Part shown: in pieces, positions 2,018-21,945 of the stretch
How positions within the stretch are numbered: position 1 is the first letter of the stretch
Layout: every line of letters starts with the position of its first letter
Origin: a virus
DNA length: 64,000 bases
Virus record (IMG/VR): IMGVR_UViG_3300036861_000610
Coordinates: 32,001 to 96,000 of that record
Strand: one strand, 5' to 3'
Translations under genes and position numbers: made by a program
Notes under the pieces: generated by a model
What the model was told of the DNA's origin: nothing
Seen by the model: the letters and a program-made list of their open reading frames with translations, nothing else
Database searches by the model: none

Positions 2018-3454
2018 ATGGGGTTATCTCTCCAGGACCGCGTCGCCATGCTGCCGGCCGAGGACCGCAACGCATGGCTTGCTGAGCTGCCCGACTACCT
2101 CATCGAAGAGATGGAGCGCGGCGAATGGTGGTGGGTCTCACGCCCAGAACAGGTACCTCCGCCAGGCAACTGGTTCGTGTGCCTCGCACTCGCCGGCCGC
2201 GGCTGGGGGAAGTCTCGAAGCGGCAGTGAATGGATCGTCAACCAGGTCCTAAGGCATCCATTCGACAGCAGTGGAACCCCCACCGAGTGGCTCGTTATCG
2301 CTGAGACTCTGTCTGACGCCCGGACGATCTGCATGGAAGGTCCCGCCGGCATTCTGCGAGTACTGGAACGACGTAAAATCAAGCACCGTTACAAGATGAG
2401 TCCACGCCCTATGATCCTGTTCCCGGACGGGGCGAAGATCTACACCGAAGGGGCTGACGACCCTGACGTAGGGCGCGGATACAACTCGTCCGGCGCCTGG
2501 TTGGACGAATGCGTGAAATGGAAATACCCAAAGAAGTCTTGGTTCGAGGGCATTATGCCTTCGTTGCGGGCAGACCTTGTTGGGGATCATCCAAGGGCAT
2601 TCGTTACCACTACGCCTAAGCCAATCGATCTTCTTCAGGAGTGGCTCAAACGAGACGACGGAACCGTTCACTTAATGCGTGGTTCCACCTTTGAAAATGC
2701 GTCCAACCTGTCTCAGCTTGTTATCGACGAACTGCGTAAACGCTATGAAGGCACCGACATTGGCCGCCAAGAACTTCATGGTGAAATGATCGAAGGCTAC
2801 GAAGGTGCACTCTTCAAGCGCATTGACATCATTAACAACAGGCTGGCCGAGGCCCCAGAATTAGTCAACATCGTCGTTGGCGTTGACCCGTCACTCACTG
2901 GCGAGGACGATGAGATGGGTATTGTTGTTGTCGGTCGCGACCGCGACAACCACATGTATGTCCTTGAAGATGCTTCTCTCATGGGTGTTGGTCGTTCGGC
3001 CGCCCTGGAAGCGTGGCGTGTGGTGGCACGCTGGGGTGCCGACAAGCTTATTTGTGAGGTAAACCTCGGCAAGCGGTGGATGCAACAGGTCTTCAACGAC
3101 GCGTATTACGAACTTGTTGGTCAACAGATATTTGAGAAAAACACCAAGCCACCGCTACTCGGCATCGACACGAAGATCGGCAAAAAGACCCGCGGTGAAC
3201 CCGTGGCTATGCGCAACGAGCAGGGCAGATTGCACCACATCGGCATCTTCCCGGAGCTGGAGGACCAGATGGCTACCTTCACCAGCTGGGGAACTTCAGA
3301 TTCACCCGACCGTCTCGACGCCCTGGTCCACGCCTGCCGCTTTCTGATCGACGGAGAAAAGAAGCAAGCAAGAATCTCCTCCCCCCAGGATGTTCTTTCC
3401 ACCACACTGCAGTCGTTGCTGGCCGAGGCAGGAAGCTATCGCGCCGACTTCTAG
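2018..3454 (+). CDS. terL: terminase large subunit
   Basis: AGRGWGKS Walker A, WLDE Walker B, TTTP, VGVDPS nuclease motif, C-terminal DRLDA. Confidence 0.93.
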   Translation: MGLSLQDRVAMLPAEDRNAWLAELPDYLIEEMERGEWWWVSRPEQVPPPGNWFVCLALAGRGWGKSRSGSEWIVNQVLRHPFDSSGTPTEWLVIAETLSDARTICMEGPAGILRVLERRKIKHRYKMSPRPMILFPDGAKIYTEGADDPDVGRGYNSSGAWLDECVKWKYPKKSWFEGIMPSLRADLVGDHPRAFVTTTPKPIDLLQEWLKRDDGTVHLMRGSTFENASNLSQLVIDELRKRYEGTDIGRQELHGEMIEGYEGALFKRIDIINNRLAEAPELVNIVVGVDPSLTGEDDEMGIVVVGRDRDNHMYVLEDASLMGVGRSAALEAWRVVARWGADKLICEVNLGKRWMQQVFNDAYYELVGQQIFEKNTKPPLLGIDTKIGKKTRGEPVAMRNEQGRLHHIGIFPELEDQMATFTSWGTSDSPDRLDALVHACRFLIDGEKKQARISSPQDVLSTTLQSLLAEAGSYRADF

Positions 3455-9023: not shown

Positions 9024-9542
9024 TCAGGGACTGGGTGCGCACCAACCGTTGCCACGATTTGGTTGCTCGGTCAAGAAATTCTCGCCAGCCTCAAATGCGG
9101 CCAGCACGTCCTCGACCGGTTCGTCTTCTACGAAGAAGTCGTCATCGTCCATGACTTCGCGAAGCGGCCGGCGCCGCCCGTTGACAGCATTCTCCAGCGC
9201 CTTTTTCAGGGCGGCAACCTGCTTTGGATCCGCGTTGATTTCGTCTGTAATCCGTTGACCTTCTCCTCGGCGTAGCTCCTCCAGCTCTTCCTCGCTGTAG
9301 GTCACAGCTTCCGCAGGATTGGCCACGGAAGCCAGCTCCTTCGCCCGCGCCAACAGCGCCTCATCATCCTCGATCAGCGCCAAGCGCTGCAAAATCTCCT
9401 GGCTGTCGGCGATGACGCGTTCGGCCACCTCCCGGAACTTCTCGGCCCGCAGTTCCTCGGCATACGCCGACAGCTTCTCGATACGCGCCTGCGCCGCCTC
9501 AGTGCCGACGAAGGTGGGTTCGACTACAGGTTCTTCAGCCAT
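9024..9542 (-). CDS. acidic helical hypothetical protein
   Basis: Long ORF with consistent codon bias. Confidence 0.6.
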   Translation of the reverse strand: MAEEPVVEPTFVGTEAAQARIEKLSAYAEELRAEKFREVAERVIADSQEILQRLALIEDDEALLARAKELASVANPAEAVTYSEEELEELRRGEGQRITDEINADPKQVAALKKALENAVNGRRRPLREVMDDDDFFVEDEPVEDVLAAFEAGENFLTEQPNRGNGWCAPSP

Positions 9543-10600
9543 GAGCTGATGATGCCGTACGACGCCCCAGCCGTTGGGTGCAATGCCAGATCGTGACCCG
9601 AGGTCGCCACCGTATACACCTTGAAGCTCTTAGCGTGAGCGTAGAACGGAGCCTCGTTTGCCGTCACAGCAGCACCGTCGGCACAGTTGAACACAGCCGG
9701 CTGGTAGCAGAAGATCGCGTCCTCCTGGCCGTTCACTACAAGCACCGGCACAGTGATCTGGTTCGAGATGTTGTCCCCGACCGCCACGTTACGGTCAGCC
9801 AGGAAGCTCAGCAGGCCCGTCAACGACACCAGGTCCTTGTTCTTCTCGTCGAGTGCGATCAGGGCAGGATCCGAGCTAGGGGAGTGGAAACCAGAAGCCC
9901 GCGCCCCAACCCGAGTGGTCAACCACCCGTTGTCCAGTGGCGGGTTCAGGTCCTTGAACTTGTCGTCCTGGTTTGCTGGGTAGTTGCCGGCAGTGACGGC
10001 CGGGTTCGAGGGCCGGTGCAGGTAGCCGGTGAGGATTACCGTGCTGACGTCGGCATACTTCTTCGCCTCGGCCAGGACCACGCCTGAGCCGTAAGAGTGT
10101 CCAACAGAGTTGACCTTCTGGTAGCCCAACGCCCGCACGCCAGACACCAGCTGGTGCAGCACAGCTGCGTCGGAGGCCATGGTGATCTCGGCGCTGGCCA
10201 ACGTGTCGTCAATCGGGTTGGTGCTGGTGCCGTTGCCGACCCGGTCGTAGGCTACCGTGGCACGGCCGTCGGCCAGTGCCCGACCTACGTAGGAGTACAG
10301 GGCCCCGCCGTCAGGCCAGTCCCAGTACGAACGGGTGTAGGTCGAGCCGGCGGTCAGAACATCCACCTCACGGGTCCACCGGAACGGGACGCAGAGGGTG
10401 ACACCCACCTCCCAGGACCGCGGTGCACCATCCGCGGGTGCTACAGGCGCGCCCAGCTTGATGCAGGCGCCCTTGCGTGAGGGATGGGTGTAGAAGGCGA
10501 AGTCGCGGCCCATCGGATGATGGGCCTGGGCAGCAGTAGGTACCAGAACGGCGGCGGCCACGGCCGCCAGCGCTGCCAGTACTGCGAACGTTTTTCTCAC
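9524..10600 (-). CDS. secreted alpha/beta hydrolase
   Basis: Signal peptide ending AQA; GHSYG nucleophile; D and GH triad motifs. Confidence 0.85.
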   Translation of the reverse strand: MRKTFAVLAALAAVAAAVLVPTAAQAHHPMGRDFAFYTHPSRKGACIKLGAPVAPADGAPRSWEVGVTLCVPFRWTREVDVLTAGSTYTRSYWDWPDGGALYSYVGRALADGRATVAYDRVGNGTSTNPIDDTLASAEITMASDAAVLHQLVSGVRALGYQKVNSVGHSYGSGVVLAEAKKYADVSTVILTGYLHRPSNPAVTAGNYPANQDDKFKDLNPPLDNGWLTTRVGARASGFHSPSSDPALIALDEKNKDLVSLTGLLSFLADRNVAVGDNISNQITVPVLVVNGQEDAIFCYQPAVFNCADGAAVTANEAPFYAHAKSFKVYTVATSGHDLALHPTAGASYGIISSWLKNL

Positions 10601-10663
10601 TCCAGGAACCTTCTCTCCAAGAAAAAACGGCCCGGCCAAGTGGCCAGGCCGCGGGGCGGTGCG

Positions 10664-10733
10664 TAGCGAGCCCCGGATTTGAACCGGGCAAGCCGCCCGT
10701 ATGAAAGGCAGCTGGTACCCAAGACCGCTCGCC
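10664..10733 (-). tRNA. tRNA-Met/Ile2(CAT), non-canonical fold
   Basis: 7-bp acceptor, short D arm, 7-bp anticodon stem, 3-nt variable loop. Confidence 0.7.
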
Positions 10734-10739
10734 AAAGGC

Positions 10740-10761
10740 GAGAATCCACAGTGGACAGCAT
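10740..10761 (-). promoter_or_regulatory. 3' arm of long-range stalk complementary to 25024-25046
   Basis: Plus strand GAGAATCCACAGTGGACAGCAT. Confidence 0.7.
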
Positions 10762-10907
10762 TAATGCTCTGGCCGGTAGCGCTCATTGCGACGAGCGCGT
10801 TCCTCTTCCTCGGCGATCTTGTCGTTGCGAGCCTTTTCGTCGTCAAGAACTCGCTGGCGTTCCCGGGCCGCCTCCGCGGCGGCCTCATCGCGTTCCCTAT
10901 CACTCAC
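10761..10907 (-). CDS. small charged helical peptide
   Basis: MSDRERDEAAAEAARERQRVLDDEK... 48 aa. Confidence 0.4.
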   Translation of the reverse strand: MSDRERDEAAAEAARERQRVLDDEKARNDKIAEEEERARRNERYRPEH

Positions 10908-10908
10908 G

Positions 10909-10984
10909 AGCCGCAGGGGGGAGTCGAACCCCAAGTTTTACAGGTTTTGCAGACCTGCCGCTGCGCCGGCAACGACCCCACGGC
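10909..10984 (-). tRNA. tRNA-Cys(GCA), 8/4 Sec-like fold
   Basis: 8-bp acceptor, U73, 6-bp D stem with 4-nt loop, 6-bp anticodon stem, 4-bp T stem. Confidence 0.75.
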
Positions 10985-11004: not shown

Positions 11005-11175
11005 TCAGATCGCTGACTGGAAGCCAGCAACAATGCCTGACGAATCATCATCGTTTTTAGCTACTCGCTTCATGATCGAAGCAAGCACCGGATTGATGTC
11101 CCCCAGAAACTCGATCAGGTTCAGGTCGGTCAAATCTGGTAGGGCGTCTGCGTCAACGCCACCATCGGTGCTCAC
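11005..11175 (-). CDS. fxsA: FxSxx-COOH (FxsA-like) RiPP precursor peptide
   Basis: LPDLTDLNL...PVLASIMKRV...VAGFQSAI-stop; FxSxx C-terminus. Confidence 0.75.
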   Translation of the reverse strand: MSTDGGVDADALPDLTDLNLIEFLGDINPVLASIMKRVAKNDDDSSGIVAGFQSAI

Positions 11176-11228
11176 CGTCGCTGCCTTTCCTTTATTCAAT
11201 GTGTACCCATTCGCTTAATAATGGAGTG

Positions 11229-11300
11229 TACCCCTGGGGAGAATCGAACTCCCGCCCCGGCCTCCGGAGGACCATGCTCTATCCACTGAGCTACAGGGGT
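11229..11300 (-). tRNA. tRNA-Arg(CCG)
   Basis: Cloverleaf, loop CTCCGGA. Confidence 0.88.
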
Positions 11301-11340: not shown

Positions 11341-11937
11341 ATGCCAAATCATCGTTCCTACACCGATGAACAACTTGAGATGGCCATTGCCTCCGCGGTC
11401 TGTTGGTCAGACGTTATGGAGTATCTGGGAAAATCCCGATCGGCAAACCCAAGGTTCGTAAAAGAGGTCGCGGCTCGACTGAAGCTCGACACGGCCCATT
11501 TCCGGAATCCGGCCCAAGTCTTCAGAACCTCGGCCTTTCCGCCTTCGTCGGAGGTGGCCAAGGGTCATGCCGGTTTAGGTGTGGCGATTGCCTGGTTCAT
11601 GAGCCGGGGGTACATGGTTCTTTTACCGATAGAGCAATCACCCTACGACCTGGTAATCGATACTGTCGATGGGTTCAAAAAGATTCAGGTGAAATCGAGC
11701 CAGAGGTCGGTTGAACCCCGACAGCGACGTGCAGTTAGATTGACCCGAAGGCTGTATGACTCTTCGGTGCCCGCAAACGCAAATGGAACTTATCGAATGG
11801 TTCAATACAAGGCCCATGAGGTTGACTACTTCTTCATCATCGTGGGCGATGGCCGCACCTATCTCATACCCTTTGAAGCTGTTCGCGACAAGTCTTCGAT
11901 CGTGCCCGAAGACAAGTATCAAGACTTTATGGTTTAG
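11341..11937 (+). CDS. PD-(D/E)XK homing-type endonuclease
   Basis: PYDLVID...KIQVKS...VDYF; opposite strand to the array. Confidence 0.85.
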   Translation: MPNHRSYTDEQLEMAIASAVCWSDVMEYLGKSRSANPRFVKEVAARLKLDTAHFRNPAQVFRTSAFPPSSEVAKGHAGLGVAIAWFMSRGYMVLLPIEQSPYDLVIDTVDGFKKIQVKSSQRSVEPRQRRAVRLTRRLYDSSVPANANGTYRMVQYKAHEVDYFFIIVGDGRTYLIPFEAVRDKSSIVPEDKYQDFMV

Positions 11938-12463: not shown

Positions 12464-12464
12464 G

Positions 12465-12537
12465 CGTCCTCGACTGGATTCGAACCAGCAACCTGCGGCT
12501 TCGGAAACCGCCACTCTCTCCGTTGAGCTACGAGGAC
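12465..12537 (-). tRNA. tRNA-Arg(CCG)
   Basis: Cloverleaf, loop TTCCGAA. Confidence 0.88.
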
Positions 12538-14999: not shown

Positions 15000-15006
15000 T
15001 TTAAGC

Positions 15007-15116
15007 CCTTCAAGAACCCCTACCCCCGGCTCTCTGCTCGGACTTTCACCGAAGAGTACATCCCCTCTGACCTTGCGGCCGTGGGACTGTTCCGGGAGTG
15101 CGAGGGTCCTTGAAGG
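15007..15116 (-). ncRNA. unassigned structured RNA
   Basis: Closing stem CCTTCAAGGACCCT/GGGGTTCTTGAAGG; internal GGCC-GCAA-GGTC and CGGTGAAAGTCCG. Confidence 0.5.
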
Positions 15117-15119
15117 TTG

Positions 15120-15193
15120 TGCCCCGTACGGAATTCGAACCCGCGCTCACAGGGCTTTAGAGGCCCCGGCTCTGACCGCTGAGCTAACGAGAC
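15120..15193 (-). tRNA. tRNA with CTA anticodon (amber suppressor candidate)
   Basis: GGGGC-CTCTAAA-GCCCT in a full cloverleaf. Confidence 0.85.
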
Positions 15194-16974: not shown

Positions 16975-16993
16975 CGCGCTCCTCCAGGAAACG

Positions 16994-17066
16994 ACCCTAC
17001 GACTGGATTCGAACCAGCAAACCTCTTCGTTCATAGCGAAGTGCTCTTCCGTTGAGCTACGTAGGG
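16994..17066 (-). tRNA. tRNA with ATG anticodon (His-like)
   Basis: CTTCG-CTATGAA-CGAAG; U73, no G-1. Confidence 0.78.
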
Positions 17067-18822: not shown

Positions 18823-18835
18823 ATTGCTCCTTGCG

Positions 18836-18911
18836 TGGATCCGACGGGATTCGAACCCGTACCTCTGCAAACCGTTAGCTGCTTATGCTCTCGCCATTAA
18901 GCTACGGACCC
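18836..18911 (-). ncRNA. tRNA-Ala-like RNA with aberrant anticodon arm
   Basis: GGGTCCG/CGGATCC-A (G3:U70), normal D and T arms. Confidence 0.65.
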
Positions 18912-21584: not shown

Positions 21585-21657
21585 TGCCCCCGCCCGGATT
21601 CGAACCGGGAACATCCGACTTTTGAGATCGGCGCCTCTGCCATTGGGCTACGGGGGC
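21585..21657 (-). tRNA. tRNA-Leu(CAA), short variable loop
   Basis: Loop CTCAAAA. Confidence 0.88.
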
Positions 21658-21660
21658 GTG

Positions 21661-21945
21661 CTACCAGTAGGCCTTTTCGGGGTCGAAGTCCGCCCATAGG
21701 ATCTCAGTCTTGACGTGGGCGTAGTTGCGCAGCTGCACCAGCTCCTTGTGGGCGACGATGCAGTCGTCGCAGATCCAGACCACCAGATCGGGGGCACTCA
21801 TCGTCGGGTCCCAGATCCGGCTGCCGTAGTTGCCGTGGGCCGCGAAGAGCAGCCCGCGGTTGGGGGCTTTGGAGTCATCCTCGTAGTCTTCGGCGAAGTT
21901 TCCGAATGCCGACTCCAGGGTCTTGAGGCATTTGAAGCAGTTCAC
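21661..21945 (-). CDS. hypothetical Zn-binding protein
   Basis: CFKC...GNYGSRIWD...ICDDC. Confidence 0.7.
   Translation of the reverse strand: MNCFKCLKTLESAFGNFAEDYEDDSKAPNRGLLFAAHGNYGSRIWDPTMSAPDLVVWICDDCIVAHKELVQLRNYAHVKTEILWADFDPEKAYW

Follow-up and report, generated by a model that had tools for sequence, protein, structure and literature searches.

An orphan gene for a predicted FxsA-family (FxSxx-COOH) RiPP precursor carried by actinophages

Why would a phage encode the precursor of a modified peptide and none of the enzymes that modify it? This question is raised by a 56-codon gene in a viral sequence, which a preliminary description attributed to an FxsA-type RiPP precursor and interpreted as a decoy, or a borrowed substrate, of a host Fxs system. 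FxsB-type enzymes form cyclophanes, which is the known chemistry of Fxs loci. To our knowledge, no biological role has been demonstrated for these loci, and their reading as conflict systems is a prediction. The DNA analyzed here, called the window below, is a stretch of 64,000 nucleotides corresponding to bases 32001–96000 of a 147,889-bp IMG/VR virus record that CheckV rates as 100% complete.

The gene occupies positions 11005–11175 on the minus strand and comprises 56 codons plus a stop codon, with a GTG start at 11175. A Shine–Dalgarno sequence, GGAAAGG (11184–11190, minus strand), can be read 8 nt before this GTG. The alternative start, a TTG at 11199 that would yield 64 amino acids (eight additional residues), is not preceded by a ribosome-binding site. 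The leader motif LPDLTDLNLIEFL (11104–11142, minus strand) represents the conserved L-x-D-L/V...L-x-E/D-L-L block of FxsA leaders, and both the leader block ALPDLTDLNLIEFL and NPVLASIMKRV are present in the peptide. Its C-terminus is SSGIVAGFQSAI, followed by the stop; F-x-S-x-x thus stands directly before the stop codon, with the peptide ending in AGFQSAI and then TGA. This core end, VAGFQSAI (F-x-S-x-x-COOH; 11008–11031, minus strand), is the same in every phage copy despite synonymous changes. No signal peptide was found in the window peptide.

The gene is embedded in an array of ∼50 tRNAs encoded on the same strand, with tRNA-Cys(GCA) downstream (10908–10984, minus strand) and tRNA-Arg(CCG) upstream (11228–11300, minus strand). 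A promoter scan revealed no sigma-70-type promoter for the peptide gene, and therefore the simplest reading is that it is co-transcribed with the tRNA array, which is probably the case. Immediately downstream of tRNA-Cys lies a gene for an alpha/beta-hydrolase with a signal-peptide-like N-terminal region (9524–10903, minus strand), of which a 56% identical fragment exists in the related phage L002. A gene for a PD-(D/E)XK (PDDEXK_5) endonuclease with an HNH-associated N-terminus (11341–11937, plus strand) is located 166 bp from the peptide gene, and in two related tRNA-array phages its homologs (43% and 64% identical) are no more than ∼1 kb away from that gene. Two copies of tRNA-Arg(CCG), the one at 11228–11300 and another at 12464–12537, flank the endonuclease gene, and a homing element of this kind may be what rearranges the array.

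The virus that carries the gene encodes a terminase large subunit (2018–3454), and its portal and major capsid proteins share 31%–44% identity with those of Arthrobacter, Gordonia, and Actinoplanes phages. The nearest cultured relative by portal and capsid is the Actinoplanes phage phiAsp2 (35%–44% identity). Judged from its sequence, the virus is a genuine actinophage, and the portal and capsid comparison resolves the host no further than this. No tyrosine integrase was found in the genome, and the phage is probably lytic. The minus-strand block that includes the tRNAs also holds Ro60/TROVE and RlaP RNA-repair genes and a P-loop kinase.

Several other features of this genome deserve mention. 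The head-gene block contains a single open reading frame of 6,683 codons (35831–55882, plus strand). Unusual members of the minus-strand tRNA array include an amber-suppressor-like tRNA with a CTA anticodon (15119–15193), a tRNA with the four-base anticodon CTAA (18835–18911), and a tRNA-His with an ATG anticodon (16993–17066). The CTA-anticodon tRNA is separated from tRNA-Arg(TCT) by a spacer of ∼115 nt (15000–15118, minus strand) that is near-identical in a related 158-kb phage, where the flanking tRNAs differ by 15%–20%. With its strong fold (−58.5 kcal/mol, z −4.1) and no match in Rfam, the spacer is a candidate for an undescribed structured RNA.

Membership of the peptide in the FxsA family was examined with several profiles. 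TIGR04268 matches the window peptide with 18.9 bits (E 1.3e-3), short of the 28 bits that the curated cut-off requires, and the match is limited to profile positions 16–44, corresponding to the C-terminal 29 residues. A local copy of Pfam gave no match. Orthologous phage peptides score above the TIGR04268 cut-off (41.6 bits for the copy in the 158-kb record, G006, and 38.6 bits for that of G002/G004), and bacterial FxsA peptides encoded next to FxsB receive only 26.4 and 23.6 bits. The 26.4-bit peptide is from Actinoplanes, where its gene is immediately followed by those for a 430-bit FxsB and an aKG-HExxH enzyme. The cut-off is therefore conservative.

For a cleaner test, an HMM was built exclusively from 18 bacterial FxsA peptides whose genes adjoin FxsB or a STAND-TPR NTPase gene. 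Among the 2,805 six-frame open reading frames of the phage, this bacterial-only HMM assigns 45.4 bits (E 8.9e-13) to the window gene. The next-best and only other match, a possible second copy at 11553–11777 of the phage record G000, reaches 14 bits, has VAGFQTAI at an internal position, and was dismissed as a chance match. Other phage copies score 50–73 bits on the bacterial-only HMM, and none of them diverges as far as the window copy (45 bits). In addition, a two-sequence profile of the window peptide and its closest relative was searched against 1.84 billion representative proteins. There were 34 matches at E<1e-3, nearly all of them peptides of 50–70 amino acids with the same leader blocks, and the C-terminal end in nearly all of them is AGF(Q/N/D)S(A/S)I. 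Because the HMM and the protein profile both match, homology spans leader and core, and the likeness is far beyond what chance would produce. The FxsA pattern that the preliminary description had recognized from three motifs, all of which are present, is thus confirmed by profile comparison. Its expectation of a TIGR04268 match held insofar as a match exists and failed at the cut-off, and the stronger evidence of the other profiles supports the assignment. On these grounds, we regard the locus as a genuine, phage-encoded, orphan gene of the FxsA (FxSxx-COOH) precursor family.

The orphan status of the gene extends beyond the window, for which the absence of a maturase had originally been noted. 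Across the complete 147,889-bp phage genome, neither TIGR04269 nor tblastn detects an FxsB and the radical SAM domain (PF04055) is missing; there is consequently no fxsB anywhere in the element. The aKG-HExxH domain is likewise absent from the whole phage by TIGR04267. Searches of the phage by tblastn with the FxsB, HExxH, nSTAND1-TPR, and KAP/NACHT proteins of bacterial Fxs loci found nothing. Partners of another kind were sought by all-against-all comparison of the open reading frames within 3 kb of the peptide gene at 12 phage loci. No neighbor family is common to phage lineages beyond close relatives, so that no alternative maturase is hidden there, and no receptor gene is close to the peptide gene. 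An open reading frame of 116–119 amino acids upstream of the gene in two relatives was rejected as a partner, since it is unlinked to the peptide gene in G006 and absent from the window's phage.

The gene is not peculiar to this virus. A tblastn search of genome contigs with the single window peptide confirmed nothing, and back-translated patterns of the peptide end were used instead. In IMG/VR, the pattern for VAGFQSAI followed by a stop identified six further contigs, all six of which encode full FxsA-like peptides. The control patterns IAGFQSAI-stop and VAGFNSAI-stop, which have equal information content, gave no viral matches. At least six phage-like metagenome contigs also carry close copies of the peptide gene. 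FxsB is absent from all seven virus records with the VAGFQSAI-stop end, among them a 158-kb record that is 97% complete and a 70-kb record that is 100% complete, and the metagenome contigs are without it as well. Orphan fxsA genes, which had been suggested as the object of a phage survey, are therefore a recurrent phenomenon. Searches of 50,697 GenBank phage records by megablast and tblastn recovered no carriers, and a higher-scoring relative used as query at E 10 against the same set also gave no match, so that no cultured carrier is known.

The position of the gene varies from phage to phage. G006 is syntenic with the window's phage (proteins 50%–90% identical), and its copy is a clean insertion of ∼210 nt, consisting of a Shine–Dalgarno sequence and the open reading frame, between tRNA-Arg(TCT) and the CTA-anticodon tRNA. 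The empty slots are reciprocal: the slot used in G006 is unoccupied in the window's phage, and the Cys–Arg slot of the window is unoccupied in G006. Metagenome relatives with tRNA arrays (L002 and L062/L063) have the gene in two further slots, and the four related tRNA-array phages thus use four different tRNA slots. Elsewhere, the gene occurs as a moron in reverse orientation, flanked by the genes for tail completion and the tape measure (G004), or lies between late genes and an integrase/repressor region (L071). It is also present, again without FxsB, on the phage-like contigs L059, L060/61, and L064/65. The gene accordingly has the features of a moron, being a small accessory gene in variable positions that recurs in unrelated phages and is under purifying selection. 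G006 additionally contains a second, divergent FxsA-like open reading frame (L015:1489–1725, minus strand; G006 21602–21736) that ends in DDPHGVISGFNNVP and is situated just downstream of a primase/D5-like gene. No counterpart of it was found in the window's phage.

Purifying selection on the phage peptide gene is evident from the substitutions. Between phage lineages, pS is 0.52–0.87 (saturated) versus a pN of 0.29–0.42, and the last eight codons of the phage copies have undergone many synonymous changes and no amino acid changes. Mean identity is 48% among phage peptides, 34% among bacterial peptides, and 36% between phage and bacterial peptides. Three changes suffice to explain the phage label on the tree, where shuffled labels need 10.7 on average. 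This tree is poorly resolved, and it does not reject a single clade of phage peptides (p-AU 0.13). The peptide is too short for the tree to settle the number of captures. The phage copies have in common DNPVL, an acidic run, and GIVAGFQSAI. From these sequence comparisons, a phage-borne FxsA subfamily with the signature DNPVL...EDD(E/D)S.GIVAGFQSAI appears to circulate among unrelated actinophages.

Bacterial FxsA loci indicate which host proteins such a peptide might encounter. The VAGFQSAI-stop pattern has 22 matches in 185,579 species genomes, of which eight are genuine (three Nonomuraea, two Dactylosporangium, two Actinoplanes, and one Streptosporangium). The other 14 have no FxsA leader, most are not C-terminal, and they were discarded as chance matches. 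FxsB-family matches exist in each of the eight genomes (above the cut-off in seven), and FxsB is inside the 8-kb locus in five of the eight cases. Among 401 genomes sampled evenly across the class, 12 matched the phage-type profile. FxsB is adjacent in seven of these 12 loci, and a homolog of the L031 NTPase is present in four. The L031 protein (L031:1246–3195, plus strand) combines an nSTAND1 NTPase with sensor repeats of the TPR and TPR-S types, and a KAP/NACHT, QatA-like NTPase is encoded close to it. One other bacterial locus has an NB-ARC-TPR protein of 1,445 amino acids nearby. The HExxH partner is currently named peptide beta-hydroxylase in NCBIfam. At the loci examined, the bacterial context given in the preliminary description is borne out for the FxsB, HExxH, and TPR/STAND NTPase genes.

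An nSTAND1-TPR NTPase gene, and not FxsB, directly follows FxsA in L031, L040, L047, L050, L056, and L057, and this arrangement was found in many bacterial loci; in L040, FxsB comes after the nSTAND1-TPR protein. The nSTAND1-TPR protein is a candidate receptor of the peptide. In a Dactylosporangium sp. locus (L037:3878–5156, minus strand), an HExxH-domain gene begins ∼380 bp downstream of FxsA. FxsB does not intervene, in contrast to the close relative L032, and L037 may represent a fused or degenerate form.

We favor the hypothesis that a host Fxs conflict system is the target of the phage peptide, which would act as a substrate or ligand mimic. Counting its variants, we assign this counter-defense reading a probability of roughly one half. 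A minimal cassette of a Shine–Dalgarno sequence and an open reading frame within the tRNA array, with no maturase, would provide the peptide during infection. The conserved phage leader would be recognized by the FxsB of the host, if it has one, and perhaps also by the aKG-HExxH hydroxylase, so that the peptide would serve as a competing substrate for these enzymes or be matured into a look-alike. The invariant core might then engage the TPR sensor of the STAND/TIR NTPases encoded beside bacterial FxsA, and the host conflict system would be blunted or steered in favor of the phage. That host enzymes recognize the peptide, what it targets, in which direction it acts, and that Fxs is an anti-phage system are all inferences.

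Several observations make this model attractive. The leader, through which enzymes recognize a RiPP precursor, and the core are kept under selection and never accompanied by an enzyme, which is best explained through host Fxs proteins. Since the phage copy is conserved yet has no modifying enzyme, a look-alike peptide is probably fed to the host system. An antagonistic outcome is favored because the gene has accessory or anti-host functions as neighbors in its carriers and because the window's phage seems to be lytic. The role proposed at the outset, that of a decoy or a borrowed substrate, also fits the recurrence of the gene in many phages, purifying selection, and moron-like positions. Against the model, the phage-type end GIVAGFQSAI is absent from bacteria among the 185,579 species representatives, and phage peptides therefore may not correspond to the FxsB or receptor of any given host. 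The divergence of the window copy, the negative promoter scan, and the fact that the role of Fxs systems is itself a prediction also weigh against it. As a tentative idea that we hold at well below even odds, actinophages could be circulating a consensus-like "master" FxsA precursor that is matured by host FxsB and occupies the TPR sensor of the STAND/TIR effector.

The conservation of leader and core suits a functional agonist equally well as an antagonist. An extra precursor might prime or trigger the host Fxs system against competing phages, or time host death, and one carrier (L071) is clearly temperate-like, given the location of its gene next to the integrase/repressor region. Such arming of the host, or exclusion, seems quite improbable for the window's phage, which looks lytic and has no tyrosine integrase, and whose copy is situated among tRNA and RNA-repair accessory genes rather than immunity genes. 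The host system might also not be involved at all. If the peptide works by itself in unmodified form, for example as a signal, by binding a TPR or other host protein, or in phage–phage communication, then its likeness to FxsA would be due to ancestry only. This would accord with the lack of a maturase and of a conserved partner gene in every phage, with the greater mean identity of phage copies to one another (48%) than to bacterial FxsA (36%), and with the clustering of the phage label on a tree that permits a single phage clade (p-AU 0.13). Nevertheless, we consider it unlikely, since a bacterial-type leader block kept under selection is hard to explain without leader-dependent recognition, and the window peptide has neither a signal peptide nor a receptor gene nearby.

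The possibility that the gene is a neutral passenger, either a functionless fragment captured not long ago from a host Fxs locus or a hitch-hiker of tRNA-array rearrangements and homing endonucleases, derives its appeal from the genomic setting. The tRNA array is prone to recombination, and the PD-(D/E)XK gene 166 bp away is near the peptide gene in two relatives too. This explanation is very hard to reconcile with an intact open reading frame that has a Shine–Dalgarno sequence and is retained in ∼7 phage contexts, with saturated synonymous sites next to an invariant core, and with the absence of any FxsB fragment beside the gene. Its likelihood is accordingly minimal.

That many unrelated phages retain a conserved copy of the precursor alone is evidence, coming independently from the phage side, for the importance of the peptide in infection. 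A single gene of 56 codons, which can be expressed with or without a host fxs locus, is also a simple handle on Fxs. If the counter-defense model is confirmed, mimicry of a RiPP signal through its precursor would be a new class of counter-defense, and RiPP biosynthesis would be linked to the STAND-type immunity of actinomycetes. If the "master" precursor idea is true, Fxs would be a RiPP-signaled immune pathway, and the gene would be the first phage anti-defense factor that works as a borrowed RiPP precursor.

How does this gene compare with systems that are already known? Phages encode mimics of host immune components, such as the pseudo-ToxI antitoxin RNA of phage PhiTE, T4 Dmd, and the Tad and Acb signal sponges. 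Like these, the gene in the window is a small accessory phage gene that would copy or intercept one component of an abortive-infection or signaling system. Unlike these, it would copy a RiPP precursor, whose maturation depends on enzymes of the host, and its inhibitory effect is a prediction.

Within the FxsA/FxsB family (TIGR04268, TIGR04269, PF27839; triceptide RiPPs), precursors fall in the same length class as the window peptide and share its leader (L-x-D-L/V..L-x-E/D-L-L and NPVL..L-R-R-V) and its AGF-Q-S-A-I-COOH end. In contrast to the loci of this family, the window copy is phage-borne, on a replicon without homologs of FxsB, HExxH, or STAND-TPR proteins. It also differs from bacterial FxsA in belonging to the phage-type subgroup, where an acidic run precedes GIVAGFQSAI. 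Kaur et al. (2020; PMC7159879) assigned the FxSxx peptide to VMAP ternary conflict systems, where it accompanies a radical SAM-SPASM enzyme and an effector of the TIR-AP-ATPase-TPR type, and predicted that its processing yields either a toxin or an amplifying signal. The reading of Fxs modules as conflict systems is thus already published. The bacterial loci examined here resemble those VMAP/FtsH ternary modules (PMC7159879) in having FxsB, HExxH, and STAND-TPR genes beside FxsA. That study covers cellular loci only, and a stand-alone phage-side copy is not described there; full-text literature searches for phage-encoded FxsA found no paper in the library covered.

FxsB-like radical SAM genes were detected in only three, putatively viral, IMG/VR contigs (L066:1397–2470, L067:5001–6119, and L068:5001–6059; 38%–40% identity). 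In L066 and L067, a multi-motif precursor of another kind adjoins the radical SAM gene, an example being ...PFNNAI...LFQSKI...PFNSDI in L067. The radical SAM/precursor pairs of L066–L068 likewise place triceptide-type chemistry on viral contigs, but they combine a maturase with a multi-motif precursor, whereas the window's phage carries the precursor only. The phage FxsA represents a known peptide family in a new setting.
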